Below, one piece after another: positions 4,201 to 58,768 of a stretch of DNA of 64,000 nucleotides. The notes below the pieces were generated by a model, which did no database searches, was not told where the DNA came from, and was given only the letters and a program-made list of their open reading frames with translations. Made by a program: the position numbers and the translations under genes. Origin of the DNA: an uncultured bacterium. GTDB lineage: Bacteria > Patescibacteriota > Minisyncoccia > Phycocordibacterales > DATDWN01. The stretch spans positions 10,243-74,242 of the forward strand of contig CAIOTC010000016.1 of the NCBI GenBank assembly GCA_903861205.1. The letters run 5' to 3'. How positions within the stretch are numbered: the first letter of the stretch is position 1; every line of letters starts with the position of its first letter.

Positions 4201-4941
4201 CATGCTGCCGGCTTTTTCCAGATCGGTTTCAAGTTGCTTCAGCAGTTTGTGCATGTCCACTTTTTTGAAAATTTCGTAGATAGCTTCGGCGCCAATTCCC
4301 GCTTCGAACATCGTGCCGTATTTCATCGAAAAATTGTGATATTCCACTTCGTCGAGAACTCTGCCCTCCTGAATTGATTGAATTTCTGTTTTGGCAGTCA
4401 GCAACATTTCCTTGACCGCTTCTTTTGTTTTTTCATCCTGCAAAGATTTGACCTTGGCTTTGTATTCGGAATCCAAATCTTTCAGATATCTGGTGCGATC
4501 TTCCTCGGAAACTTTGGTGATGATGTAGCCAGCAAAATAAACCACTTTTTCAATTTCAATAGTTGGAATGCCGAGGACCAAAGAAATTCGCGATGGCATC
4601 GACTTCAAAAACCAGATGTGAGAGACGGGCGAAGAAAGCTCAATGTGTCCCATTCTTTCGCGTCTGACGATTGAGCGGGTAATTTCAACTCCGCACTTTT
4701 CGCAGACGATACCTTTAAATCTGATACCGCGATATTTTCCGCAGTAACACTCGTAGTCTTTGTCCGGACCGAAAATTTTCTCGTCGAAAAGACCGGCTTT
4801 CTCGCTGCGCTGGGTTCGATAGTTGATCGTTTCCGGTTTGGTCACCTCGCCGAAAGACCACTCCTTGATGCGTTCCGGAGAAGCGATCTTGAGAGCGATG
4901 GTTTCGAAATCGTTTGCGTTTTGTGATTTTGGTTTTATCAT
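1255..4941 (-). CDS. rpoC: DNA-directed RNA polymerase subunit beta'
   Basis: 1228-aa ORF. It has the beta' zinc-binding CYCGKYRG...CEKCGVE and the catalytic NADFDGDQMAVHVPLS motif. Confidence 0.95.
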   Translation of the reverse strand: MIKPKSQNANDFETIALKIASPERIKEWSFGEVTKPETINYRTQRSEKAGLFDEKIFGPDKDYECYCGKYRGIRFKGIVCEKCGVEITRSIVRRERMGHIELSSPVSHIWFLKSMPSRISLVLGIPTIEIEKVVYFAGYIITKVSEEDRTRYLKDLDSEYKAKVKSLQDEKTKEAVKEMLLTAKTEIQSIQEGRVLDEVEYHNFSMKYGTMFEAGIGAEAIYEIFKKVDMHKLLKQLETDLEKAGSMESAKINKRISTVAAMVHSGTRPEWMFLTHIPVIPPALRPMVPLDGGRYATSDVNDLYRRVINRNNRLKKLKDIHAPDVILRNEKRILQEAVDALIDNSIRHGNSGSAVNLTQRRPLKSLSDNLKGKRGIFRQNLLGKRVDYSGRSVIVVGPDLKLHQCGLPKHMALELFKPFIISQLLKKELAYNIRGASKLIEDGIPEVWAILEEVIADKYVLLNRAPTLHRLGIQAFQPILIEGNAIQLHPMVCSAFNADFDGDQMAVHVPLSDEAQTEAREIMASDKNLLKPGSGDPTIVAKLLDIVLGCYWMTKDVPGEVGEGKIFATPNNAITAYDFGVISFRSKIKVLPTKSVKYAGFEGKLFETTVGRLLFNSVLPSDYPFINTTIDRKKTAGIVDELIERYGIENIPPIIDKIKSFGFKFATHSGVTWGIDDIMVPEGKKGVISEAKGKSDAVMEHYNAGLISKEEKLRQTTEIWHGAKDKVEKLMPATLEVNGSVADMVLSGARGSMGNITQMGGMIGLITNTAGETIEFPILSCSKEGLTPIEYFITTHGSRKGLTDTALNTAKAGYLTRKLFVVAQDTIITEEDCGTKDSIKISKNAISGIEISIGKHIRGRFLAADVVSPSGEMLFKKDTFLSKKDAQKIEAEKVSEVWVRSPLTCKTQNGICVKCYGADLGKNKVVELGEAVGTVAGQAIGEPGTQLTMRTFHTGGTASVGGDITSGLPRVEELFEKRKPKSPAVVSSVSGTISDIKLSNKEKIIVITPNLEDRVKNKQQIEYSIPPNRVILVKVGDEIKKGDIITDGSADIDELFKYAGKDKTVDYIIHEINKPYELQGETVSRKHIETIVRQMFARKLIKDAGDTVFSYGDIVESAFLAEENARVRLSGGQEAKAEGVVMGITDVSLSRKSFLAAASFQHTTRMLISSAIRGNDDKLSGLMENVILGRLIPAGSGFAGSKKQKMIEDMKKTKQAEYYAENREMVEQ

Positions 4942-5025
4942 AATAGTTTTATAAGTTTAATAAGGTGTATAAGTTTAATAAGTTTTGCATTCTGACTTAT
5001 TCAACTTTTTAAACTTTTTCAACTT
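4942..5025. repeat. rpoB-rpoC intergenic hairpin element with multi-frame stop motif (gttgaaaaagtttaaaaagttgaataag on the coding strand)
   Basis: The motif overlaps the rpoB stop. Related copies follow infB (19931-19958) and rpsA (56008-56035). It is followed by inverted cttattaaact repeats. Confidence 0.5.
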
Positions 5026-8744: not shown

Positions 8745-8778
8745 GAATCTTCCGTGGTGAATTTGCATTCGCATTCAA

Positions 8779-8816
8779 GGTCTGGCCTTGGGAAATTGGG
8801 CATTAAAGGCCAGACC
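8779..8816. repeat. 38-bp hairpin repeat ggtctggccttgggaaattgggcattaaaggccagacc (copy 1), overlapping the MGMT 3' end
   Basis: 11-bp stem GGTCTGGCCTT/AAGGCCAGACC. A second copy (36/38 identical) sits at 16849-16886 inside iscS. Here it encodes the last five codons QRSGL and the TAA stop of the MGMT gene. Confidence 0.8.
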
Positions 8817-9081
8817 TTTGGAGAATTTTGCACCCCTCCTCTTCCAGTATTTTTCTTTTCTTTATAGTTCCCTTATTGTACCCGCCCAACTTCCCATCCG
8901 ACCGAATCACTCGGTGACACGGAATGTCCGGATCATGATTTGTATGCAAGATATTCCCCACAGCTCTAGACGCCAGTGGACTACCAGCTTTTTCCGCCAC
9001 TTCTTTATACGTTAAAACTTTTCCCTTCGGGATCTTCCTCACAACTTCAAAAACCCTTTCTGTAAATGTTTTCTTTGTCAT
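8803..9081 (-). CDS. Methylated-DNA-protein-cysteine methyltransferase (O6-alkylguanine alkyltransferase) DNA-binding/active-site domain protein
   Basis: 92 aa with the PCHRV active-site motif (HTNHDPDIPCHRVIRSDGKLGGY) typical of Ogt/MGMT C-terminal domains. Confidence 0.7.
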   Translation of the reverse strand: MTKKTFTERVFEVVRKIPKGKVLTYKEVAEKAGSPLASRAVGNILHTNHDPDIPCHRVIRSDGKLGGYNKGTIKKRKILEEEGCKILQRSGL

Positions 9082-11378: not shown

Positions 11379-12122
11379 CTACGCTTGAATTCTTTTGAAA
11401 AACTCCGCGCCGATGTAGAGGCAAACGAAAGCGATAACAAAAAGAATAAGTGCATCAAGACCAAAAGAGAAAACATGTTGGCCGATGAGCGCTCCGCGAA
11501 TGCCGTCAACGGCATAGGACAAGGGATTGGCGTGCACTATTATATTAAACACCGTCGGCAATCCAACAATCGGAAAAAGCGCGCCGGAGAGAAAGAACAG
11601 TGGCATGACCAAAAAGTTGATGATGAGCGGAAAACTTTGCATGTCGTCGAGCTTGCTGGCAATCATTGTGCCGAACGCGGTGAAAAACAACGCCAGTAAA
11701 AACATGAAAACAATGGCCAGCGGAACTCCGGAAAGCGCCGGTTTAAATCCGGCCAAAAGCGTGATGAGCAAAACGATAATACCTTGAATAAAGGCCACCG
11801 TTGTCCCGCCTAGCGTTCGGCCGAGCATAATATTGAAACGCGACACCGGCGCAACAAGAGTTTCTTTCAAAAATCCGAATTGCTTGTCCCAAATAATTTC
11901 AATGCCGGAAAAAACGGCCGTGAACATGACAGTCATGGCAATAATACCCGGCGCTAAAAATTGGATGTAGCTTCCTTCGCCCGCTTTGGCAAAAGTGGAG
12001 CCAAATCCAAAACCGAAAGCAAAAAGAAAAAGCAGTGGTTGAGCCAGCGAGGCAAACATACGCTGTTTGCTTCTAACATATCTTTTCAATTGTCGTAACC
12101 ACAAAATGTAAATAGTAGACAT
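11379..12122 (-). CDS. ABC-2 type transporter permease
   Basis: Six predicted TM helices. The best start is ATG at 12122 (MSTIYILWLRQLKRY). The GTG-extended ORF to 12218 reads through the upstream repeat (FPRRRESRYLKLDSRLRGNDK) and is rejected. Confidence 0.7.
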   Translation of the reverse strand: MSTIYILWLRQLKRYVRSKQRMFASLAQPLLFLFAFGFGFGSTFAKAGEGSYIQFLAPGIIAMTVMFTAVFSGIEIIWDKQFGFLKETLVAPVSRFNIMLGRTLGGTTVAFIQGIIVLLITLLAGFKPALSGVPLAIVFMFLLALFFTAFGTMIASKLDDMQSFPLIINFLVMPLFFLSGALFPIVGLPTVFNIIVHANPLSYAVDGIRGALIGQHVFSFGLDALILFVIAFVCLYIGAEFFKRIQA

Positions 12123-12134
12123 TTTATTGTATTT

Positions 12135-12198
12135 GTCATTCCCGCGAAGGCGGGAATCTAATTTTAAATATCTGGATTCCCGCCTTCGCGGGAATGAC
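12135..12198. repeat. Composite REP-like palindrome: gtcattcccgcgaaggcgggaatc plus its inverted copy gattcccgccttcgcgggaatgac
   Basis: Each unit is itself a hairpin (ATTCCCGC / GCGGGAAT). The same family is at 54118-54207 and 56129-56190. Confidence 0.8.
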
Positions 12199-12205
12199 AG
12201 AAACA

Positions 12206-12994
12206 CTACCTGCCCCACATTCTATTTGTTAATCTTTTCGCATCCATACCCGTGCTTTCTTCGCGAATATGCTTCCCCGTCAATTCCAAAAAGGCATCTT
12301 CCAACGTGGCTGATTTGGTACTTTCTTTCAATTCTGCCGGCGTGCCAGAAGCCACGATGACACCCTGATCGATGATCGCCACTCTGTCGGCATTTTTGTC
12401 CGCCTCCTCCATGTAATGCGTGGTGAAAAAAACAGTCAGGCCTTCTTTTTGGTTGAGATTTTTTATATAACTCCACATGTGATTGCGCGTTTGAGGATCG
12501 AGACCAAGTGTCGGCTCGTCGAGAAACAGCACTTTCGGATGATGCAAAAGTCCGCGGGCAATTTCCAAACGACGCTTCATTCCGCCGGAAAAATCTTTGA
12601 CCAAACTGTCCTTCCTATCCCACAAATCGACAAGTTCGAGCAACTCCTGTATGCGCGGTTTGTAAACAGATTTCGGCACGGCGTACATGACAGCGTGCAG
12701 TTCCATGTTTTCGTATGCAGTCATTTCGGTATCGACGGACGGATCCTGAAAGACAATTCCGAACGAATGTCTAGCCTCGTCCGGATATTTGATGACATCA
12801 AAACCATTGAGCACGACAGACCCAGATGTAGGCTCGAGAAGCGTGGTCAACATTTTTATGCTCGTTGTTTTGCCGGCGCCATTGGGTCCCAGAAAAGCAA
12901 AATTCTCGCCTTGTTTGACGGAAAAAGTGATGTTGTTGACGGCTGTAAAATCTCCAAACTTTTTGGTGGCATCCTTGACTTCTATGATATTCAT
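12206..12994 (-). CDS. ABC transporter ATP-binding protein
   Basis: Walker A GPNGAGKTT, signature LSGGMKRRLEIA, Walker B LFLDEPTLGLD. It is the partner of the downstream permease. Confidence 0.9.
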   Translation of the reverse strand: MNIIEVKDATKKFGDFTAVNNITFSVKQGENFAFLGPNGAGKTTSIKMLTTLLEPTSGSVVLNGFDVIKYPDEARHSFGIVFQDPSVDTEMTAYENMELHAVMYAVPKSVYKPRIQELLELVDLWDRKDSLVKDFSGGMKRRLEIARGLLHHPKVLFLDEPTLGLDPQTRNHMWSYIKNLNQKEGLTVFFTTHYMEEADKNADRVAIIDQGVIVASGTPAELKESTKSATLEDAFLELTGKHIREESTGMDAKRLTNRMWGR

Positions 12995-13015: not shown

Positions 13016-13744
13016 CTAAAGTTTCGATGAAGAATTTTTTGACTTTTTCCACTTTTCTATCTCGGCGCGGTTTCCAGACAGTAATATTTTTGGCACTTTG
13101 TATTTTTTTCCTTTATATTCCAAAACTTCCGGACGAGTGTAAACGTCACTGCTCGCTGTGCGTGATTCCTCGAGTGAGTCAAAATTGCCGAGAACGCCCT
13201 CGACTTGGCGCGAAATACAATCAATCAAAATCATGGCTGGCAATTCCCCTCCGGTCAGCACAAAAGGTCCGACGGAAATTTCTTCCGTTTTGAAAATCTT
13301 TTTGACTCGCGCGTCAATCCCCTCGTACCTGCCGGAAATTAAAATGATGTCGGTGAATTTTGTCGCAACTTTTTTCGCATAGGTTGTATCAAATTGTTTG
13401 CCAGATGGAGAAAACCAAATAATAGAGATTCGAGATGAGAGTTTAGAGGTTAGAGATTTATTTTTTGTTTTTGTGTTTTTTCTAGACTCTTGTCTCTTGA
13501 CTCTTATCTCTATTTTCTTGAGCGCTGCTTCCACCGCTTTTACAACCGGAAGCGCTTGTATGACCATGCCTGGTCCGCCACTGTATGGCTTTTGGTCAAT
13601 ATGTCGAAATTTGTTGTCAGAAAAATCTCTCGGGTTGTAAAATTTTACCGAAATTTTCTTATCTTCAATGGCCCGCTTCAAAATCGACTCACCGAGGTAG
13701 GAGGTGAAACTGTCGGGAAATAATGTGATGATATGGAAATGCAT
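13016..13744 (-). CDS. trmD: tRNA (guanine37-N1)-methyltransferase TrmD carrying an in-frame low-complexity insertion
   Basis: MHFHIITLFPDSF...GRYEGIDARV...LTGGELPA are TrmD hallmarks. An extra about 35 aa (KKIEIRVKRQESRKNTKTKNKSLTSKLSSRISIIW) is encoded by an imperfect agag/ctct palindrome around 13425-13525. Confidence 0.85.
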   Translation of the reverse strand: MHFHIITLFPDSFTSYLGESILKRAIEDKKISVKFYNPRDFSDNKFRHIDQKPYSGGPGMVIQALPVVKAVEAALKKIEIRVKRQESRKNTKTKNKSLTSKLSSRISIIWFSPSGKQFDTTYAKKVATKFTDIILISGRYEGIDARVKKIFKTEEISVGPFVLTGGELPAMILIDCISRQVEGVLGNFDSLEESRTASSDVYTRPEVLEYKGKKYKVPKILLSGNRAEIEKWKKSKNSSSKL

Positions 13745-13840
13745 GAGAACAATTTGTAATTTTGTAATTTTTAATTTTTAAATAATTTTCAAATGTCCAA
13801 ATTTTTAAAAGAATACAATATTTTTGTGATTTAATCAAAT

Positions 13841-14196
13841 TCACCCTGTGATATTGCCCGGAGGGCACCCGTATCACAGGGTAAAATTTTTGCAAACAAA
13901 CAGACGGCCACGAATGGTCGTCTTTTTTAGCGGGAGTGGGGAGATTCTTACTGGAGGACTTCCCCACCCCTAATGGTTTCAACTCGGCTGCAGACCGAGG
14001 GCGGGCACCAGTAACCCCGCGCCAAGCGAAAACATAAAATTTTTTTATCCTCCGGAACATTTCGCAGTGCCGGTCGGACAGGCGTGTCGTAGGCCTAAAA
14101 TGGCCATCACTACCTTCCACTATCTATCCTAGCATACCCCACATTTTTTGTCAAGCGATTTTGGTGGAAAAATAAAAATACTTTTTCAAAATCAAA
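13841..14196. ncRNA. GC-rich, heavily structured intergenic segment where rimM would normally sit; candidate structured RNA of unknown class
   Basis: Nested perfect hairpins accctgtgata/tatcacagggt (13841-13881), gtggggag/cttccccac, ctcgg/ccgag and ggcc/ggcc. A plus-strand terminator-like hairpin (13902-13927) lies inside the span and a bidirectional terminator closes it at 14192-14224. No credible ORF. GC content is far above the local average. Confidence 0.3.
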
Positions 14197-14224
14197 AAAC
14201 ACGGCTTAAAACCGTGCTTTTTTG
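14192..14224. terminator. Bidirectional rho-independent terminator downstream of rpsP-khpA
   Basis: aaaaaacacggcttaaaaccgtgctttttttg: a CACGG/CCGTG stem with an A-tract 5' and a T-tract 3'. Confidence 0.7.
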
Positions 14225-14244
14225 ATAATCAAATTTTATTGAGA

Positions 14245-15893: not shown

Positions 15894-17168
15894 TCACATC
15901 ACAATTTTTTTCAAAGCTTTGACCAATACGTCAATGTCTTTTTTTGTCGTCGTTCGGCCGAGCGTGACGCGCAAACTGGAGGCGCTACAATTTTTGCGAC
16001 CAAGTTCGGAGATGACGTACGACGAAGAATTTTCTTTGCTCGTTTGACACGACGACGAATATGAAGTAGCGATGCCCTCCACATCCAAAGCGACGACGAT
16101 GTACTCACTGTCTGGCGCAGGCATATCAGCCATGGCTGAAAAACAAATATTGATGTTGTTTGGCAATCTGTCAGTCTGCGAGCCGTTCAGTTTGGCGTTC
16201 GGGAAAGCCTGGCAAATTTTTTCGATTCCGTAATCACGGATTTTTTGTAGTCGAGCCGATTCCGACTGGCGCAAATTTTCTGCCAGCTCTAGCGCTTTGG
16301 CCATGCCAACCATTCCCTCGACATTTTCCGTACCGCTGCGCAATCCGCCTTGCTGTCCACCGCCAAACATGATCGATTTTATTTTCACGCCCGTTCGCAC
16401 GTACAAAATTCCCACACCTCGCGGACCATGCATTTTGATACCATCGAGTGTCATCAAATCCACGCCAAGTTTTGCAACATCCAGCGGACAATACAAACCG
16501 GCTTGGCAGGCGTCAACATGAAAAATTGGAAATTTTTCATCAATTTTCAATTTACAATTTTTAATTTTTAATGAATTTTTTAATTTCTCAATTTTCCAAT
16601 TTTTAATTGCTTTTCCGATTTCTTTGATTGGCTGGATTGTGCCGATTTCGTTGTTGGCGTACATGACCGAAACCAAAACTGTGTTTTCTTTGATCGCAGC
16701 CAAAATATCTTTCGGCGAAACAAGTCCATCCTCCGAAACTCCAACGTAAGTTACTTCCCCACCGCGTCGTTCAATTTCCTTGCAAACTTCCAAAATAGCC
16801 GGATGCTCGATTCTGGTAGTAACAATGTGCGGAATGAATTTAGCACCCGAGGTCTGGCCTTGGGAAATTGGGCACCAAAGGCCAGACCTCTGGATCTCCT
16901 CAAACACACCCAAAAGCGCCAAGTTGTCCGACTCGGTTCCTCCGGAAGTGAAAATAATTTCGTTGGCTCGCGTGCCCAAAACCCTGGCGATTTTTTCTCG
17001 CGACTCCTTCATCACTTCCTTCGCCTTCATCCCCTCGCCATACAACGCTGACGGATTGGCAAAATTTTTCGCAGAATATTTCGCCATCGCCCCACTCACC
17101 TCTTTGGCCACAGGTGTAATCGACACATAATCCAAAAATATTCTTTTTTTGTTTTTTCGAGAAATCAT
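15894..17168 (-). CDS. iscS: Cysteine desulfurase (IscS/NifS family) with two in-frame repeat-derived insertions
   Basis: TSGGTESDN, HVDACQAG, HKMHGPRGVGILYV, GGGQQGGLRSGTENV. Best start is ATG at 17168 (MISRKNKKRIFLDY); the track extends from a TTG at 17291. Insert 1 (QRSGLWCPISQGQTSGA) is encoded by the 16849-16886 hairpin repeat. Insert 2 (NWKIEKLKNSLKIKNCKLKIDEK) is encoded by AT-rich repeat 16521-16616. Confidence 0.85.
   Translation of the reverse strand: MISRKNKKRIFLDYVSITPVAKEVSGAMAKYSAKNFANPSALYGEGMKAKEVMKESREKIARVLGTRANEIIFTSGGTESDNLALLGVFEEIQRSGLWCPISQGQTSGAKFIPHIVTTRIEHPAILEVCKEIERRGGEVTYVGVSEDGLVSPKDILAAIKENTVLVSVMYANNEIGTIQPIKEIGKAIKNWKIEKLKNSLKIKNCKLKIDEKFPIFHVDACQAGLYCPLDVAKLGVDLMTLDGIKMHGPRGVGILYVRTGVKIKSIMFGGGQQGGLRSGTENVEGMVGMAKALELAENLRQSESARLQKIRDYGIEKICQAFPNAKLNGSQTDRLPNNINICFSAMADMPAPDSEYIVVALDVEGIATSYSSSCQTSKENSSSYVISELGRKNCSASSLRVTLGRTTTKKDIDVLVKALKKIVM
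16849..16886. repeat. Hairpin repeat ggtctggccttgggaaattgggcaccaaaggccagacc (copy 2), in-frame inside iscS
   Basis: Differs from copy 1 only at cattaaagg versus caccaaagg. Those two changes remove the TAA that terminates the MGMT gene in copy 1. Confidence 0.8.
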
Positions 17169-17583: not shown

Positions 17584-17613
17584 GCAAAATAAATTCGAAA
17601 ATGACACTAAACA

Positions 17614-17793
17614 AATTTTGTCGAGGAAAATCATTTTGGGCGCATTGCGGAATGCGTGAAGACATGAGCAGGAAGAAAAATCCCAGCAGGGATTTATTCT
17701 GGCGACCAAAATGATTTTCCTCGACAAAATTTGTGGTCTCGAATAGTTCGCTCACACCCGGTGATCACGTTGCTGCGCCGTGGACACCAGGTG
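17614..17793. mobile_element. MITE-like palindromic element, copy 1 (25-bp TIRs aaattttgtcgaggaaaatcatttt / aaaatgattttcctcgacaaaattt) plus adjacent cacccggtg...caccaggtg hairpin module
   Basis: Core 17614-17732, hairpin module 17755-17793. The core and hairpin module recur in inverse orientation at 52726-52969, with about 85-90% core identity. Confidence 0.7.
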
Positions 17794-17824: not shown

Positions 17825-18307
17825 ATGTATAATGACGCCATGGTCTTTGACCCGCTTATTTTGATATATGTGCTGGGAGCAATCATCATTTTGTTGCTCG
17901 GTTTCATTTTGCGCCTAGAAATCAAACTGCGACGACTCTCAGCGGGCAAAAACGGCAAATCGCTCGAGGACACCATTTTGGAAGCGCACAAAGCCATCGG
18001 CGATCTGCACGAGTTCCGCAAAGATTCGATCGAATATTTCAAAGACGTCGAAAAAAGATTGTCGCGAAGCATTCAGGCAGTGGAGACAATTCGCTTCAAC
18101 CCATTCAAGGGCACGGGCGAGGGTGGCAGTCAGAGTTTTTGCACGACATTTTCGAACGAGCGAGGCGATGGAGTGGTCATTTCCAGCCTTTACTCGCGCG
18201 ATCGCGTGAGCATCTTTTCAAAGCCGCTCCAAAAATTCGAAAGCACGTTTGAACTGACGCCGGAAGAAGCAGAAACGTTGGAGACAGCGAGAAAGAATCT
18301 TCAATAA
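17825..18307 (+). CDS. DUF4446-like membrane-anchored protein
   Basis: N-terminal TM then IRFNPFKGTGEGGSQSFCTTFSNERGDGVVISSL. The family assignment is from memory of DUF4446 architecture. Confidence 0.4.
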   Translation: MYNDAMVFDPLILIYVLGAIIILLLGFILRLEIKLRRLSAGKNGKSLEDTILEAHKAIGDLHEFRKDSIEYFKDVEKRLSRSIQAVETIRFNPFKGTGEGGSQSFCTTFSNERGDGVVISSLYSRDRVSIFSKPLQKFESTFELTPEEAETLETARKNLQ

Positions 18308-18420
18308 TTTTCAAGTAACAATTTTCAATTTCCAATAAATTTTTCAATGTCACAATGTTTCAATTGAAGAATTGTTTTATTGCTTCATTCATTGGAAATT
18401 GGAAATTGGAAATTTTTTAA
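18301..18420. repeat. AT-rich palindromic intergenic repeat (same family as 1121-1254)
   Basis: Shares the exact 24-mer caatttccaataaatttttcaatg (18326-18349) and inverted cattggaaattggaaattggaaat. Confidence 0.6.
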
Positions 18421-18425
18421 ATGCC

Positions 18426-19925
18426 ATGGTTACAACAGAATCGAACACAAAAACAGAACGCTCTCCGGTCGTGGCCATCATGGGTCATATTGATCATGGA
18501 AAAAGTACCATTCTCTCTTTCATTCGCAAGAACACCAAGGAGCTAAACGAAGCGGGTGGCATTACTCAACACGTCTCTGCTTACGAGGTCACTCACACTG
18601 ACGAATCCGGCGCCGTGCGCAAAATCACTTTTCTGGACACACCCGGTCATGAGGCTTTTTCCGGCATTCGCCGACGCGGGGCAAAGGTGGCCGACATTGC
18701 CGTACTGGTTGTTTCAGCCGAGGATGGCGTCAAACCGCAAACGCTCGAAGCGCTCAAATCAATTACCGACAGCAAAACACCCTACGTTGTAGCCATAAAC
18801 AAAATCGACAAACCGGATGCCAGCGTCGAACGAACAAAGCAATCGTTGGCCGAAAATTCAATATTCGTCGAAGGTTACGGCGGAGACATTCCGGTGGTGT
18901 CAGTTTCCGGAAAAACCGGCGAGGGCATCGGCGAGCTACTCGACATGATCTTGCTCGTGGCGACCATTTCAGAGCTCACCGGCGACCCTTCCCTGCCCGG
19001 CCAAGGCGTCATCATCGAAAGCAATCGCGACATAAAAAAGGGCATCTCGGCCGTCTGCGTTATCAAAAACGGCACTTTGAAAAAAGGAACTTTCATCGCC
19101 TCAAGCGGTGCTGTCGCCCCCGTGCGAATCATGGAAAATTATTTGGGCGAGCAAATTTCGGAGACGTCATTTTCCAGTCCGGTCAGAATTATCGGCTGGG
19201 ACAATTTGCCTATTGTCGGCAGCGAATTTATGACATTTGATACTCGCGAAGAAGCTACCAGCTACGCAAATAATGAAAAAAATAAAGCACAAGCTACAAC
19301 TGCGACAGAAAGAGATTCAGAGCACAAAATTCCACTCATCGTCAAAGCTGACACCAGCGGAAGCCTTGAAGCTGTCTTGCAAGAAATAAAAAAAATGGCG
19401 AACGATCGCGTTGGCGCGCAAGTTATTTTCTCCGGCATTGGAGAAATTTCGGAAAGCGATGTTAAACTGGCGGGCGGTTCGCAAAAAGCCGTGGTCATTG
19501 GTTTTAACACCAAAGTCAGTTCACTAGCCAAGCAAGTAGCCGAGAGATCCGAAATCCAGGTTGAAACATTCACCATTATTTACAAAATGAGCGAGTGGCT
19601 TTCGGAATTTCTGACAACGCAGACGCCGAAAAAATCAGTCGAGGAATCAACCGGCGAAGCAAAAGTTCTGAAAATTTTCAGCAAAATAAAAGACAAGCAA
19701 ATAATCGGATGTCGAGTGGAGACCGGATCCATTTCCGTTGGCTCCATTTTCAAAATCAAACGCCGCGACGAGGAAATCGGTCAGGGAAAAATAAAAGGAT
19801 TGGAATTGCAAAAAAACAAAACCGACCAAGTGAGCGAAGGCAAAGAATGCGGAGTGATGGCGGAAGCCAAAATCGAAATCGCCCCTGGAGATAAGATTGA
19901 AAGCTTTATTATTGTTGAAAAATAA
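18426..19925 (+). CDS. infB: Translation initiation factor IF-2 (compact form lacking the long N-terminal region)
   Basis: G domain GHIDHGKSTIL, DTPGHEAF, NKIDK. ATG at 18426 (MVTTESN); the track ORF starts at an upstream alternative start, 18372. Confidence 0.9.
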   Translation: MVTTESNTKTERSPVVAIMGHIDHGKSTILSFIRKNTKELNEAGGITQHVSAYEVTHTDESGAVRKITFLDTPGHEAFSGIRRRGAKVADIAVLVVSAEDGVKPQTLEALKSITDSKTPYVVAINKIDKPDASVERTKQSLAENSIFVEGYGGDIPVVSVSGKTGEGIGELLDMILLVATISELTGDPSLPGQGVIIESNRDIKKGISAVCVIKNGTLKKGTFIASSGAVAPVRIMENYLGEQISETSFSSPVRIIGWDNLPIVGSEFMTFDTREEATSYANNEKNKAQATTATERDSEHKIPLIVKADTSGSLEAVLQEIKKMANDRVGAQVIFSGIGEISESDVKLAGGSQKAVVIGFNTKVSSLAKQVAERSEIQVETFTIIYKMSEWLSEFLTTQTPKKSVEESTGEAKVLKIFSKIKDKQIIGCRVETGSISVGSIFKIKRRDEEIGQGKIKGLELQKNKTDQVSEGKECGVMAEAKIEIAPGDKIESFIIVEK

Positions 19926-20020
19926 ATTTAGTTGAATAAGTTTAAAAAGTTGAATAAGGAAATGCAAGAAACTTATACAACTTATTAAACTAAAGCGAAG
20001 CGTAACTTATTAAACTTGCC

Positions 20021-52725: not shown

Positions 52726-52969
52726 CACTCGGTGTATGTTGGTAATCCAACTTCACCGAGTGCGGGCAAACTTATATCGCAAATTTCTTACGAGAAAACT
52801 CATTTTGGTCGCCAGAATAAATCGCTGCTGCGATTTTTCTTCCTGCTCGTGTCTTCACGCACTCCGCAATGCGCCCAAAATGAGTTTTCTCGCCAAAATT
52901 TGCTTAGTGGTGAATCGAAAAATTTTTTCTCACCCGGTGTCGGCGGCGAAGCAACGCAGTCACCGGGTG
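52726..52969. mobile_element. MITE-like palindromic element, copy 2 (inverse orientation of 17614-17793) with flanking hairpin modules
   Basis: Core 52781-52902 with TIRs aaatttcttacgagaaaactcatttt / aaaatgagttttctcgccaaaattt. Hairpins cactcggtg...caccgagtg (52726-52762) and cacccggtg...caccgggtg (52931-52969). Confidence 0.7.
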
Positions 52970-52977
52970 TGGAAAAA

Positions 52978-53313
52978 TTATTGAGTAGTTGAAGCAGTCG
53001 CTTCAGGAGTTGTTGTCGCCAGATTATAATAATCCGCTCCACCGTAAAGACTGGAGCCAAGTTGTTTAATTTTGGAAATTTGCTCGCCGATGGCCGAGGT
53101 GCTTTGGGACAAAATAGCGGTGAATGTCGAAAACGGACTTGTTTCGCTCGCCGAGATACGGTCAGAAATACTTTTTTCCTGTCCAAACTGCGGATAAATG
53201 GCCGTAATCCAAACAACAAAAATAATTCCAACGCACAAAAAAGAAACGAGAAAAGCAATCCGCTTTTTCGCCCCATCCGGCTTCTGTCTCAATTTTTCCA
53301 AGTAGTTGAACAC
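52978..53313 (-). CDS. Small membrane protein, hypothetical
   Basis: One TM helix (IAFLVSFLCVGIIFVVWITAIY), then a Ser/Thr-rich tail. Confidence 0.35.
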   Translation of the reverse strand: MFNYLEKLRQKPDGAKKRIAFLVSFLCVGIIFVVWITAIYPQFGQEKSISDRISASETSPFSTFTAILSQSTSAIGEQISKIKQLGSSLYGGADYYNLATTTPEATASTTQ

Positions 53314-53319
53314 AATAAT

Positions 53320-53410
53320 AATTTAGAATTTTTAATTTAGAATTTAAAATAAATTTAAAATGATTAAATTTAAAAATTATAAATTCTAAATTTATTTTAA
53401 ATTATAAATT
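53320..53410. repeat. AT-rich tandem/palindromic repeat (aatttagaat / attctaaatt units)
   Basis: Nearly palindromic across its centre. Related tracts at 54067-54105 and 58669-58768. Confidence 0.5.
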
Positions 53411-54070
53411 CTAAATTTGTTGCAAAACCGTCACCTCCCCTTCCTTGCCCTCCAAATCTTTCTTTTTGATCGTCAATTTGTCCAGCGATTCTGCTTTTTC
53501 CTCGCCGGCTTCTTTTAGGAATTTTTTCAGCGCGTCCTTTTCGCCGACTTCACCGTAATGGCTGGGAATAATCAGTTTCGGTTCAAATTGCAGAGCCAAC
53601 TTGTGCGCCACGGCCGGTGACAAAACTCCGTCGCCTCCGATCGGCACGAACAAAATATCCACGCCGTCGATTGCCTCCACCACATTAGCCGGAATTTTTT
53701 CATCGCCGAGCGCGCCAAAAAAACAGAGGGTAATGCCTTCCAGATTTATCGTATATATAGTATTGATTCGCTCCTCGCCTCCGTAGGACGATTTGGACAA
53801 AAAGCCTTTGATAAAAACTCCGCGCACTTCGTATTCGCCGGGACCGTTTATGATGAAGGATTCTTTTTCTCCGCGAGATGTCACGTCCGTGCCGTTGTGT
53901 TCAGGGCTGTTCAAAAGCGAAACGAGCGTAATGTCACTGCCAAACCGCGTGCTCTTGACCGGCGAATCTTTGGAAATCGGATTAACCGCCAAAGTGGTGT
54001 CGCCGAATGTAACCTTAAAAAAGTCTGCGCCGTGGTAAGTGATGATCATAATGTGCTTATTATATAGCAC
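53411..54070 (-). CDS. MBL-fold metallo-hydrolase (UPF0173/YtkL-like)
   Basis: MIITYHGADFFKV start region, then conserved His/Asp blocks ILFVPIGGDGVLSP...IIPSHYGEVG. Confidence 0.6.
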   Translation of the reverse strand: MLYNKHIMIITYHGADFFKVTFGDTTLAVNPISKDSPVKSTRFGSDITLVSLLNSPEHNGTDVTSRGEKESFIINGPGEYEVRGVFIKGFLSKSSYGGEERINTIYTINLEGITLCFFGALGDEKIPANVVEAIDGVDILFVPIGGDGVLSPAVAHKLALQFEPKLIIPSHYGEVGEKDALKKFLKEAGEEKAESLDKLTIKKKDLEGKEGEVTVLQQI

Positions 54071-54117
54071 AAAATTTTAAATTTCAAATTCTAAATTTTA
54101 AATGAATTTTTAGTTCT

Positions 54118-54207
54118 GTCATTCCCGCATAACTTTCTGTCATTCCCGCGAAAGCGGGAATCCAGACCCTGTTCAATCACCCAGATTTCCGCCTACGCGG
54201 GAATGAC
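54118..54207. repeat. REP-like gtcattcccgcg family, locus 2 (one partial plus an inverted pair of units)
   Basis: gtcattcccgcgaaagcgggaatc (54139-54162) and gatttccgcctacgcgggaatgac (54184-54207). Confidence 0.75.
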
Positions 54208-54278
54208 ACAAAACACAAAACAAAAGCCGTCATCCCGAAGGGTAACGGCTGTGCAGGGCCTAAACCTTGCGTATTAGA

Positions 54279-54841: not shown

Positions 54842-56005
54842 ATGATTAAAAAATTAAAGGACGACGAGGTAATAAATCCTACTTCGCCAGAGGCTACGCA
54901 GGACGAGTCCGAAAAGGCTCGGAAAGAAAATTTGATGGACAAGGTGCTAAACTCGAGCGCCAATCCCCCGTCGGTTGATGATGTTATCGAAGGCACAGTT
55001 ATCGGCATAGAAAAATCAAAAGTTTACATTGATATACCGCCGTTCGGGACGGGTATTATTTTTGGCCGTGAATACATCAACGCTCGCGACATTATCAAGA
55101 AAATCAACATTGGTGACAGCGTGGCCGGCAAGGTGGTCAGCGTCAGCAACAAAGACGGCTACATTGAAATTTCATTAAAGGAGGCTCGCCAAGCGCTCAT
55201 CTGGAGCGAAGCCGAGGACGCTATCCGCGACAAGAAAATTTTCGAACTTCCGGTGATCGAGGCCAACAAAGGCGGTTTGATTTTGGTTTGGCAGGGCATT
55301 TCCGGTTTCTTGCCGGCTTCCCAGCTCAAAACCGAGCACTACCCGCGTGTAGCTGACGGCGATAAAGACAGAATTTTGGAAGAATTGCGCAAATTGGTCG
55401 GACAGAAAATTTCGGTGGCTATCATTGGCGCATCACCAAAGGAAGGCAAGCTCATTTTCTCCGAGAAAAATCCGGAGCAGAAAAATAAAGATCATATTAT
55501 CGGCAAGTACGCTCTCGGCGACGAGCTGACCGGCGAAGTGACCGGCATGGTTGACTTCGGTGTGTTCGTTAAACTCGAGGAAGGCTTGGAGGGACTGGTG
55601 CACATCTCGGAAATCGACTGGGCGCTGGTGGAGAATCCAAAACTACTCTTCCATATCGGTGAGAAAGTGAAAGTCAAAATAATCGAAATCAAGGAAGGTA
55701 AAATTTCCCTGTCCATCAAAGCCCTGAAAGAAAATCCGTGGCATGACGCCGAGAAGAAATATAAAAAAGATGATGTGGTGGATGGCGTAGTCATCAAATT
55801 CAACAAACACGGCGCACTGGCCTCGATCGAGGAAGGCATCGCCGGCTTGGTCCACATTTCCGAATTCGGCTCGGATGAAAAACTGCACTCAACACTCGAA
55901 CTTGGCAAATCGTACAAATTCAAAATCACACTCTTTGATGCAAAGGAGCAGAAGATGACACTGAGTTTCATTGATCCAAGCAAGAAAGCAGAAGAAGTTA
56001 AATAA
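54842..56005 (+). CDS. rpsA: 30S ribosomal protein S1 (four S1 domains)
   Basis: Four repeats of the S1 fold: GTVIGIEKSKVYIDI, GKVVSVSNKDGYIEISLK, GEVTGMVDFGVFVKL, GVVIKFNKHGALASI. Confidence 0.8.
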   Translation: MIKKLKDDEVINPTSPEATQDESEKARKENLMDKVLNSSANPPSVDDVIEGTVIGIEKSKVYIDIPPFGTGIIFGREYINARDIIKKINIGDSVAGKVVSVSNKDGYIEISLKEARQALIWSEAEDAIRDKKIFELPVIEANKGGLILVWQGISGFLPASQLKTEHYPRVADGDKDRILEELRKLVGQKISVAIIGASPKEGKLIFSEKNPEQKNKDHIIGKYALGDELTGEVTGMVDFGVFVKLEEGLEGLVHISEIDWALVENPKLLFHIGEKVKVKIIEIKEGKISLSIKALKENPWHDAEKKYKKDDVVDGVVIKFNKHGALASIEEGIAGLVHISEFGSDEKLHSTLELGKSYKFKITLFDAKEQKMTLSFIDPSKKAEEVK

Positions 56006-56036
56006 GTTTAAAAAGTTGAATAAGTAAAAATCATTC

Positions 56037-56072: not shown

Positions 56073-56128
56073 CGCAAGGACTGTCCATGCGAGTTTGAAA
56101 TTTTTCCGTCACTAGAATATTAATTCAT

Positions 56129-56190
56129 GTCATCCCCGCGAATACGGGGATCCAGTCCAAACTCTAGATTCCCGCATTCGCGGGAATGAC
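56129..56190. repeat. REP-like gtcattcccgcg family, locus 3
   Basis: gtcatccccgcgaatacggggatc (56129-56152) and gattcccgcattcgcgggaatgac (56167-56190). Confidence 0.75.
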
Positions 56191-56219
56191 AAAATCGCGC
56201 AAGTGGCTCGCCGAAATTT

Positions 56220-57855: not shown

Positions 57856-57964
57856 AAAAATAAAAAATCTTGCTTGCTTGCATTTTTTCGGAGACTCCGG
57901 ACGCCGGCGGGCGGAGGCTTGAGGAATTTTTCAGCAGAAAAATATCCGTGCTCCGAAAAAATGC
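57856..57964. repeat. 26-bp perfect inverted repeat tcttgcttgcttgcattttttcggag / ctccgaaaaaatgcaagcaagcaaga separated by 57 bp
   Basis: Arms are at 57856-57881 and 57939-57964 with exact reverse-complementarity. The spacer contains a GC-rich ccggacgccggcgggcgg. It lies about 90 bp upstream of lepB. Confidence 0.7.
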
Positions 57965-58050
57965 AAGCAAGCAAGAAATTTTTTTTGAAAATCGTCATAC
58001 CACGCCAAACTCTATTGTGTCAAGCCAATCAATACTGTATACTTGATTTC

Positions 58051-58668
58051 ATGAATGACGAACAAATCATTGAACCTATTGCACAAAACGAGAAAAAACC
58101 AAGTGGACTGATGAGCTTGCTAAAGGAAGTTCTGATTTTTGCAGTCATCGCTTTTTGTATCATCCTACCCTTCCGCGCTTTTGTAGCCGAGCCTTACATC
58201 GTCTCCGGCGCTTCAATGGATCCGACGTTCGCTACCGGCCACTATCTCATTGTGGACAAAATTTCGCATGAGCTAGGCGCACAACTGCAGAGAAATTCCG
58301 TCGTTATTTTTCAATTTCCAAAAAGCGCCAATATTCCTTCCGAAGACGGCAAAAACCTGATAAAACGCGTTATCGGCCTGCCCGGCGACACCGTAATCGA
58401 GACCGGAAACACCGTCACCATCAAAAACGCGTCAAATCCCGACGGCTTCGTTTTGGACCAATCATACGTCACTCACCCGCTGCCGGGATCTTTTGCCATC
58501 ACACTGAAACCGGGCGAATATTTTGTCATGGGCGACAATCGCGCCGAAAGTTTTGACTCGCGAAGCTGGGGAGTTTTGCCATCAAGCGATGTTATCGGAC
58601 GGCCGATTCTGCGACTATGGCCGCTTTCGGAAATAGGAGTTTTGCCGGGACAGGACAATACAAAATAA
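58051..58668 (+). CDS. lepB: Signal peptidase I
   Basis: SGASMDPTF (Ser box), KRVIGLPGD, GDNRAESFDSR. The track ORF from TTG 57766 reads through the inverted repeat, so the start was trimmed to ATG 58051. Confidence 0.85.
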   Translation: MNDEQIIEPIAQNEKKPSGLMSLLKEVLIFAVIAFCIILPFRAFVAEPYIVSGASMDPTFATGHYLIVDKISHELGAQLQRNSVVIFQFPKSANIPSEDGKNLIKRVIGLPGDTVIETGNTVTIKNASNPDGFVLDQSYVTHPLPGSFAITLKPGEYFVMGDNRAESFDSRSWGVLPSSDVIGRPILRLWPLSEIGVLPGQDNTK

Positions 58669-58768
58669 TTTTTAATTTTTAATTTAAAATTTTTAATGAA
58701 TTTTCAATGTCAAATTTTTAAATTCAATAAAAATTCTAAATTTTAAATTTTAAATTTTTATATTTACA

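Follow-up and report, generated by a model that had tools for sequence, protein, structure and literature searches.

How might a gene for an essential tRNA-modifying enzyme have come to carry a DNA palindrome within its reading frame? We considered this question for trmD, which encodes tRNA m1G37 methyltransferase, in a 64-kb stretch of DNA (the window, with ~52 genes; it lies on an 80-kb contig) from a member of the Patescibacteria (Parcubacteria/Paceibacteria); the TrmD homologues with source names come from Candidatus Zambryskibacteria, Paceibacterota and Patescibacteria. An earlier examination of the letters of this DNA (the sequence-only reading) had reported some 35 extra residues in TrmD encoded by an imperfect agag/ctct palindrome, together with two repeat-derived insertions in iscS, the gene for a cysteine desulfurase, and had taken them as signs of a genome-wide invasion of coding sequence by repeats. 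Its observation of in-frame palindromic repeats, to which we now add heptanucleotide repeats, is confirmed, and its interpretation is partly supported. With a probability that we put at roughly 0.6, a permissive surface loop of TrmD has expanded in frame through this segment, which is translated and is a product of repeats at the DNA level and not a selected new function.

The segment is an inverted repeat with two arms of 34 nt (13421-13454 and 13481-13514) that are 71% complementary and separated by 26 nt. As RNA, the hairpin at 13421-13514 folds at -24.1 kcal/mol, whereas dinucleotide shuffles give -12.1 +/- 2.9 kcal/mol (z = -4.1) and none of 200 equalled it, and in the minimum-energy fold 4-bp AGAG/CTCT cores alternate with 3 unpaired bases. 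Because shuffling within each arm never reached this energy either (0 of 300), the fold exceeds what a purine-rich half facing a pyrimidine-rich half would give. The AlphaFold model of the window TrmD matches TrmD crystal structures, and residues 75-106 have no counterpart in solved TrmD structures: 32 aa stand in place of the 8 of E. coli TrmD. Helix 3 precedes the loop and the strand leading to the SPxGK part of the trefoil knot follows it, and the 3′ arm of the insertion continues into the conserved strand IIWFSPSGK. Thus, the in-frame hairpin reported earlier stands, whereas the figure of ~35 extra residues has to be reduced; the 35-aa peptide (13415-13519) corresponds to a basal loop of 15 aa in close relatives, a net gain of ~20 aa (~24 aa relative to E. 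coli).

Could these segments lie outside the mature protein, as an intron, an intein or a translational bypass would, or be artefacts of assembly? The oddity of hairpins within essential genes is the only point in favor of such an origin, which we regard as vanishingly improbable. An exact-protein look-up, in which the contigs are identical by construction, placed the same TrmD on eight contigs from separate assemblies, so that the trmD insertion is not an assembly artefact. The insertions have lengths that are multiples of 3; the sense strand is free of stops in the used frame only, the other sense frames being closed; and orthologues with homologous insertions conserve the peptide. In addition, the segments are too short by far to be an intein or an intron of group I or II, and they have no match in Rfam: the known RNA families reaching the gathering threshold were tRNAs only, and a relaxed threshold gave nothing credible around trmD. 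Intein, intron and artefact were accordingly rejected on the evidence of the eight contigs and of the frame.

The most informative feature of these elements, which the sequence-only reading had missed and which is new here, is a periodicity of 7 nt. The period-7 self-match of the trmD insertion is 0.65 (p = 0.002), and Tandem Repeats Finder (TRF) reports period 7 in both trmD arms, in the array at the second iscS insertion site (site 2) and in every AT-rich intergenic element of the window. Under a strict definition of an array (4 or more copies, matching at 80% or better), eight of period 7 occur in the window, periods 6 and 8-12 are unrepresented, and shuffles yield none. The units differ by locus, being AATTTYC/ATTGRAA-like in the intergenic elements and iscS and AGAGNNN/CTCTNNN in trmD, and there is no single genome-wide unit. 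In sequence, the trmD insertion resembles none of the other repeat families of the window; the common feature is the architecture, inverted 7-nt arrays round an A/T-rich centre.

The same period marks this loop in related genomes. Among periods 2-12, the strongest is 7 in 17 of 31 expanded TrmD loops, and in 15 it beats shuffles at p < 0.01. The GGPGM-SPxGK segment of TrmD, which makes up 1.8% of the DNA in 87 loci, nevertheless contains 11 of their 18 period-7 arrays, compared with 0 of 42 arrays of period 4, 3 of 24 of period 5 and 1 of 13 of period 6. The units change from lineage to lineage (AGAGTCA, GAATATA, TAGAAGT, GAGTTAA, AAAAGCT, AATTAAG and others) while the period persists, and in some lineages the loop carries, in place of heptamer arrays, hairpins that are short and perfect or GC-rich. 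Hairpin-prone sequences (z <= -2.5) were found in 9 of 26 non-redundant expanded loops for which DNA was at hand, as against 0 of 26 and 1 of 26 in two sets of control segments that were matched for length and taken from the same genes (Wilcoxon p = 1e-4 and 9e-4, respectively). Two period-7 arrays inside TrmD lie outside the main loop (L058:5732-5769 and L047:2199-2226), and some orthologues (P0026, P0063, P0120) have a second insertion site after GRYEGID...KK.

These statistics bear on a simpler proposal, namely that the segment is an ordinary lineage-specific low-complexity loop, rich in K, R and S, whose hairpin and period are incidental to its amino-acid composition. The loop is indeed variable and Lys-rich in all Paceibacteria, synonymous resampling of its codons recovers much of the folding energy, and the second iscS insertion forms no significant hairpin (z = -1.2). 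However, the period is specific to 7, which is not a multiple of 3, while periods 6 and 9 are not enriched; the within-arm shuffles do not match the fold; the enrichment over control segments of the same genes is significant; and the same architecture occurs in non-coding spacers. We therefore consider the proposal highly unlikely; the period-7 and control statistics already refute it in large part.

How old is the trmD insertion? About 40 of 120 TrmD orthologues have a basal 15-aa loop (ALS.IKRKKNAK.KI), and these are interleaved on the tree with at least six unrelated insertion types, a patchy distribution that indicates repeated gain, loss, or both. A homologous insertion (IE.R.KR.E.RKN...S.L.SR.SI) is found in relatives at 73-83% identity outside the loop, and the TrmDs that are closest outside the loop, P0025 (88%) and P0023 (85%; the protein of locus L174), keep the basal form. 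By these comparisons, the trmD insertion is older than the iscS insertions described below, and it was probably inherited and remodelled within a sub-clade.

Such retention within a sub-clade might speak for selection, either because an mRNA hairpin slows or regulates translation or stabilizes the message, or because a basic helix-loop arm aids binding of tRNA or of a partner. Where the outer stem of the window reads AGAGAT/ATCTCT, that of L086 and L168 reads AGAAGT/ACTTCT, a compensatory two-base change between the arms that is non-synonymous on both sides. In the AlphaFold model, helix 64-89 extends through the K/R-rich 5′ arm (KKIEIRVKRQESRK) as a continuation of a confident helix, and strand 106-117 starts in the 3′ arm. 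On the other hand, L172 and L169 have lost the hairpin, in L084, L085 and L171 it is weak, and RNAalifold finds a negligible consensus over nine homologous insertions (-0.36 kcal/mol; the covariation term is positive). Furthermore, residues 92-102 in the centre of the insertion have pLDDT (predicted local distance difference test) values below 50 while the core is confident, TrmDs 85-88% identical outside the loop (P0023 and P0025) have only the basal form, and no Rfam family matches. A selected function is thus quite improbable; the hairpin is probably not selected as an RNA structure, and since the nine insertions have next to no consensus structure we claim no selected RNA element in this loop.

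The iscS gene offers a younger counterpart of the trmD expansion. The orthologue comparison bears out the earlier description of all these segments as in-frame insertions, and relative to solved desulfurases IscS has extra segments at both of the sites previously named. The second of them (site 2, 16521-16616) is real and in frame, and its size had been overstated: the net gain over the closest orthologues is 14 aa, or 42 nt, which is exactly six 7-nt units and begins at an ancestral AAATTGG that was already unit-like. Its peptide NWKIEKLKNSLKIKNCKLKIDEK is encoded at 16533-16601. The earlier assignment of this segment to the AT-rich family of intergenic repeats was borne out, as the array is identical to intergenic positions 1227-1248 at 22 of 22 nt (0.01 expected), matches 18306-18365 at 82% over 60 nt and 58667-58704 at 87% over 38 nt, and has 25 invariant columns in a seven-member alignment with the intergenic elements; it is a true member of the family. 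The other insertion (site 1) is a GC-rich hairpin and, as had been stated, a repeated element, with a second copy at 93% identity over 45 nt (8778-8822); again the size had been overstated, the net gain being 13 aa. The hairpin was found in none of 174 other loci and in no viral contig. Its second copy supplies the last codons and the stop of a small MGMT-like open reading frame (ORF; 8803-9081, minus strand), and may have remodelled the C-terminus of that protein. IscS has yet another insertion at a third site, where other orthologues carry different ones.

The gene order infB, DUF4446, iscS, trypsin-like, rpsP, KH, trmD is common to the window, L173 and L174. Because these nearest relatives, in the first of which IscS is 74% identical, lack both the site-1 and the site-2 insertion, the two gains are recent in the window lineage. 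The trmD insertion, with its homologues at 73-83% identity, is not a recent invasion. In the AlphaFold model of IscS, the insertions at sites 1, 2 and 3 coincide with low-confidence segments (99-108, 206-210 and 356-360, with pLDDT < 50) within a confident core. The models of both proteins would be consistent with insertion sites tolerated by the fold as helix or strand extensions followed by low-confidence loops. The same IscS loops bear differing insertions in many Paceibacteria; this statement about hot spots rests on protein alignment and two syntenic relatives, iscS being present in three of the fetched loci. The spacer between iscS and DUF4446 is 653 nt long in the window and 45-51 nt in L173 and L174.

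Within the window, at least six related intergenic elements besides the site-2 array belong to the AT-rich family (Table 1). All six frames of the intergenic members contain stops, except that the shorter array upstream of trmD has one open frame. At the site of the 119-nt element in the DUF4446/infB spacer, L173 has a spacer of only 24 nt. Strong hairpins, defined by a stem of at least 11 with at most 1 mismatch, number 28 against 5.3 expected, and 20 of them fall in non-coding DNA, which makes up 16% of the window. The eight in coding sequence compare with ~4.4 expected and include two in iscS, apart from which they are near chance. Only trmD and iscS, among ~52 genes, have insertions of this kind. 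For this window, it is therefore an overstatement to speak of coding sequence being invaded genome-wide; the general process is real at the scale of the lineage, its evidence being recurrence across species and not the census of the window.

Table 1. Positions of trmD, iscS, their insertions and the related repeat elements in the window
Feature	Position	Strand	Description
trmD (tRNA m1G37 methyltransferase)	13016-13744	minus	242 aa; PF01746, E = 8e-35; matches solved TrmD structures at E = 1e-41
trmD insertion, 5′ arm (mRNA sense)	13481-13514	minus	Purine-rich; AGAGNNN-type 7-nt units; encodes IEIRVKRQESR; TRF period 7 at 13487-13511, 3.6 copies
trmD hairpin, A-rich loop	13455-13480	minus	Encodes KNTKTKNK; unpaired in the minimum-energy fold
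trmD insertion, 3′ arm	13421-13454	minus	Pyrimidine-rich; CTCTNNN-type 7-nt units; encodes SLTSKLSSRISI; TRF period 7 at 13423-13458, 5.1 copies
iscS/nifS-type cysteine desulfurase	15894-17168	minus	PF00266, E = 8e-57; matches solved cysteine desulfurases at E = 5e-75
IscS site 1, GC-rich hairpin	16846-16893	minus	Encodes LWCPISQGQTSGAKF, +13 aa net; 19-nt arms, 89% complementary; fold z = -4.2
Second copy of GC-rich hairpin	8777-8822		93% identity over 45 nt to 16850-16894
IscS site 2, AT-rich 7-nt array	16521-16616	minus	TRF period 7, 9.9 copies at 16540-16608; net gain IEKLKNSLKIKNCKLKID, ~16539-16592, +14 aa
IscS site 3	16113-16139	minus	SAMADMPAP, +6 aa relative to L173 and L174; perfect 12-nt palindrome CAGCCATGGCTG at 16127-16138
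Peptides spanning the insertions			IEIRVK...SSRISIIWF, LWCPISQGQTSGAK, IEKLKNSLK
Intergenic AT-rich hairpin, inverted 7-nt arrays (AATTTCC ... ATTGAAA)	1116-1258		Fold z = -4.15; TRF period 7 at 1122-1152 and 1222-1252; in AT-rich family alignment
AT-rich heptamer array directly upstream of trmD start codon	13745-13822		TRF period 7 at 13751-13781; aligns with AT-rich family
AT-rich heptamer hairpin, DUF4446/infB spacer	18308-18426		119 nt; fold z = -3.9; TRF period 7 at 18306-18336 and 18391-18414
Intergenic AT-rich heptamer palindrome	53305-53425		Two inverted repeats; TRF period 7 at 53320-53417; in AT-rich family alignment
AT-rich heptamer array upstream of ORF 53411-54070 (minus)	54060-54120		TRF period 7 at 54072-54103; in AT-rich family alignment
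Intergenic AT-rich heptamer hairpin	58662-58768		Fold z = -3.3; TRF period 7, 13.9 copies at 58667-58758

[quoted passage not shown] Several observations fit such an origin. The GC-rich hairpin has its second copy in the window, the AT-rich insertion has its 22-nt identity to an intergenic copy, and both are missing from the nearest relatives. The loops of some TrmD orthologues encode peptides of the kind produced by GC-rich palindromes, such as ITPPTPLTTRGE and FRLKAGMT. The hairpins in the TrmD loops of L013 and L006 recur in the non-coding DNA of other genomes (L020, L012 and L043) and are thus dispersed elements, one such copy being terminator-like and located directly after a stop codon. 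TrmD loops and intergenic arrays also have heptamer units in common, GAATTAA in non-coding arrays of related genomes and AAATTTC in L169. The trmD element, however, is a single copy, with no other in the 64-kb window or in ~1.2 Mb of relatives' loci. Neither terminal inverted repeats apart from the arms nor target-site duplications were seen: flanking direct repeats were not visible by inspection round 16846-16893, 8777-8822 and 13421-13514, where no systematic test was made. Moreover, a constant period with units that differ by lineage suggests turnover in place. On balance, we consider a mobile element unlikely as the source of the trmD insertion.

We propose instead that the expansion of the TrmD loop, which consists of two inverted 7-nt arrays round an A-rich centre, would have arisen in three steps. 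First, replication slippage would gain or lose heptamer units, the frame being kept solely by steps of three units (21 nt, or 7 aa). Second, an inverted second arm would form and stay partly complementary, through template switching over a short distance, or else through an intergenic heptamer hairpin that is captured or serves as the source of a conversion. Third, purifying selection would purge stops, frameshifts and insertions at non-permissive sites, so that copies in surface loops remain. The site-1 and site-2 insertions of IscS may reflect the same kind of process at a recent date. The anatomy of the insertions, their period, their open frame, their spread among orthologues and their return to one loop are observed; slippage combined with template switching, translation and neutrality are what we infer.

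Some of the evidence weighs against this explanation. The heptamer units that TrmD loops have in common with non-coding arrays, taken together with the IscS match to an intergenic copy, favor copying from elsewhere over growth purely in place, and the dispersed hairpins of L013 and L006 point in the same direction. When the trmD codons were resampled with the peptide held fixed, most of the hairpin energy was reproduced (z = -2.0; 10 of 300), and therefore nucleotide-level and peptide-level causes are not fully separable. Template switching is a putative source of the arms. That the insertions are translated seems probable from the sole open sense frame and from the conservation of homologous insertions at the peptide level. 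The search for copies in the source genome covers the 64 kb of the window.

A broader possibility, which we put forward tentatively, is that an active process in Paceibacteria builds hairpins from inverted heptanucleotide arrays, mostly between genes, and repeatedly seeds or remodels loops in coding sequence. The TrmD loop between helix 3 and strand 4 might then be a coding minisatellite that changes in steps of 21 nt, with template switching, or conversion against intergenic copies, maintaining the pairing of its arms. If this is true, it would constitute a general source of new protein loops in reduced genomes and a class of repeat not described before.

These results indicate that the dynamics of non-coding repeats can lengthen essential proteins without breaking them, in a lineage that is much reduced and little studied. 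Repeats with a unit length indivisible by three are usually thought to be excluded from genes, yet here 7-nt arrays stay in frame, and many independent gains are recorded in one TrmD loop. Such loops should provide a natural system for the study of insertion-tolerant sites in proteins, of the origin and upkeep of coding hairpins, and of repeats as raw material for protein features. The insertions account for length variation and low-complexity segments in patescibacterial proteins, and they may confuse gene calling, alignment and structure prediction. In our incomplete coverage of the literature, we found no report of in-frame palindromes or heptamer arrays in Patescibacteria.

The window contains further repeats. 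A third palindromic family (GTCATTCCCGCGAAGGCGGGAATC and its complement) is intergenic at 12125-12208, 54114-54212 and 56128-56191, with 26 of 27 bp paired at 12132-12201; read through, it gives peptides of the PRRRESR/DSRLRGNDK type and inflates ORF 11379-12218. The peptide FRLKAGMT in the loops of the TrmD orthologues P0063 and P0086 resembles a translated element akin to this family. A MITE-like palindrome of ~124 bp occurs in two copies (17611-17734 and 52782-52901), with 33-nt arms that are 97% and 84% complementary and a 58-nt centre; the start of its arm, ACAAATTTTGTCGA, recurs in the iscS-trypsin spacer of L174. A long inverted repeat at 57858-57986 has 36-nt arms, 92% complementary, with 57 nt between them, and includes CTTGCTTGCTTGC. 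A second family of array hairpins has a unit length of 9 (4941-5025, 19927-19994 and 55995-56029; units TAATAAGTT, ACTTTTTCA and AGTTGAAAA); its members are intergenic and are found directly after gene ends on the rpoB and infB sides. The spacer between the KH-domain gene and trmD (13823-14244, ~500 nt), which is of equal length in L173 (498 nt), contains a 14-bp hairpin at 13840-13885 and a terminator-like stem at 13902-13923 (plus strand). It has no match in Rfam and may be a candidate for an unrecognized small RNA or small gene.

We also considered, and rejected, the idea that the ATTGGAA array has a special standing as a motif shared by many genomes. The exact ATTGGAA 24-mer was present in 8 viral contigs, two permuted units in 11 and 3, and the known unit TAACTGA in 67; as permuted units are about as frequent, arbitrary heptamer arrays are generically common. 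In viral contigs L175-L182 (42-68% GC), the exact ATTGGAA arrays usually lie at or immediately before a start codon, and that of L182 is an inverted pair resembling the spacers of the window.

How do these elements compare with known systems? Among the long simple-sequence repeats of prokaryotes, those with heptanucleotide units are the most abundant, and slippage of the polymerase has been proposed as their cause; the TAACTGA arrays of Beggiatoaceae and cyanobacteria lie, in Beggiatoaceae, just upstream of start codons (PMC4679880, in part summarizing earlier work). The arrays described here are likewise tandem, lie for the most part between genes and in many cases are situated directly upstream of a start codon; their coding copies are limited by stops, since three frames are read within 21 nt; and arrays of at least 3-4 units are present beyond chance (3.6, 5.1 and 9.9 copies; eight arrays in the window under the strict definition, against none in shuffles). 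The STRR (short tandemly repeated repetitive) sequences of cyanobacteria are comparable heptanucleotide repeats. The known arrays, however, repeat one conserved unit in direct orientation and are described as rare within genes, whereas those found here form inverted hairpin pairs with variable units, lie inside essential genes and recur at one TrmD loop.

Template switching, by which a nearby sequence is copied as its reverse complement, creates and maintains hairpins, and a single event can make a hairpin or a multi-base compensatory change, coding sequence included (10.1101/2021.04.15.439925; PMC8604942). Such a process would fit the unique hairpins and the change from AGAGAT/ATCTCT to AGAAGT/ACTTCT; the 7-nt periodicity is not explained by template switching alone. 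Long inverted repeats whose two arms are both translated have been described in functional mitochondrial genes of Nematomorpha (PMC6649704). These palindromes show that translated inverted repeats can be functional, but they are perfect repeats of up to 284 bp over conserved regions, unlike the short and imperfect ones in variable surface loops here. The 45-nt GC-rich hairpin resembles REP sequences (PMC3733652) in being a short, repeated and imperfect palindrome (16846-16893 and 8777-8822), one copy of which lies at the 3′ end of a gene; it differs from them in having two copies in 64 kb, no GTAG/CGTC tag at its ends and one copy in coding sequence.

RPEs are small palindromic repeats that are intergenic but also occur in frame in unrelated housekeeping genes, where they are translated at positions compatible with the fold (PMC10969869). 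The IscS GC-rich hairpin and AT-rich insertion resemble them, being repeated, in frame, missing from the nearest orthologues and located in low-confidence surface loops. Like RPEs, the elements studied here form hairpins (z = -4.1 for trmD, -4.2 for the GC-rich hairpin and -3.3 to -4.2 for intergenic members, the site-2 array by itself being non-significant at -1.2) and lie in frame in conserved genes whose orthologues lack them (L173 and L174 for IscS; the ~40 basal forms among 120 for TrmD). The IscS site-2 array, with at least six intergenic relatives, and the GC-rich hairpin, with two copies, are also multi-copy, whereas the trmD insertion is single in 64 kb. In contrast, RPEs measure ~100-150 bp, have a conserved sequence and encoded peptide, and belong to an intracellular alphaproteobacterium, while the present elements are ~40-95 nt long and their host is a patescibacterium. 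Here, the trmD, GC-rich and AT-rich elements are mutually unrelated in sequence, the TrmD loop encodes at least six unrelated peptides among lineages, and the AT-rich and trmD elements are 7-nt arrays. Membership among the RPEs thus fails on conserved sequence, conserved peptide and length; as an analogy for the outcome, a palindromic repeat apparently accommodated in frame within a housekeeping protein, the RPEs are nevertheless the closest system.

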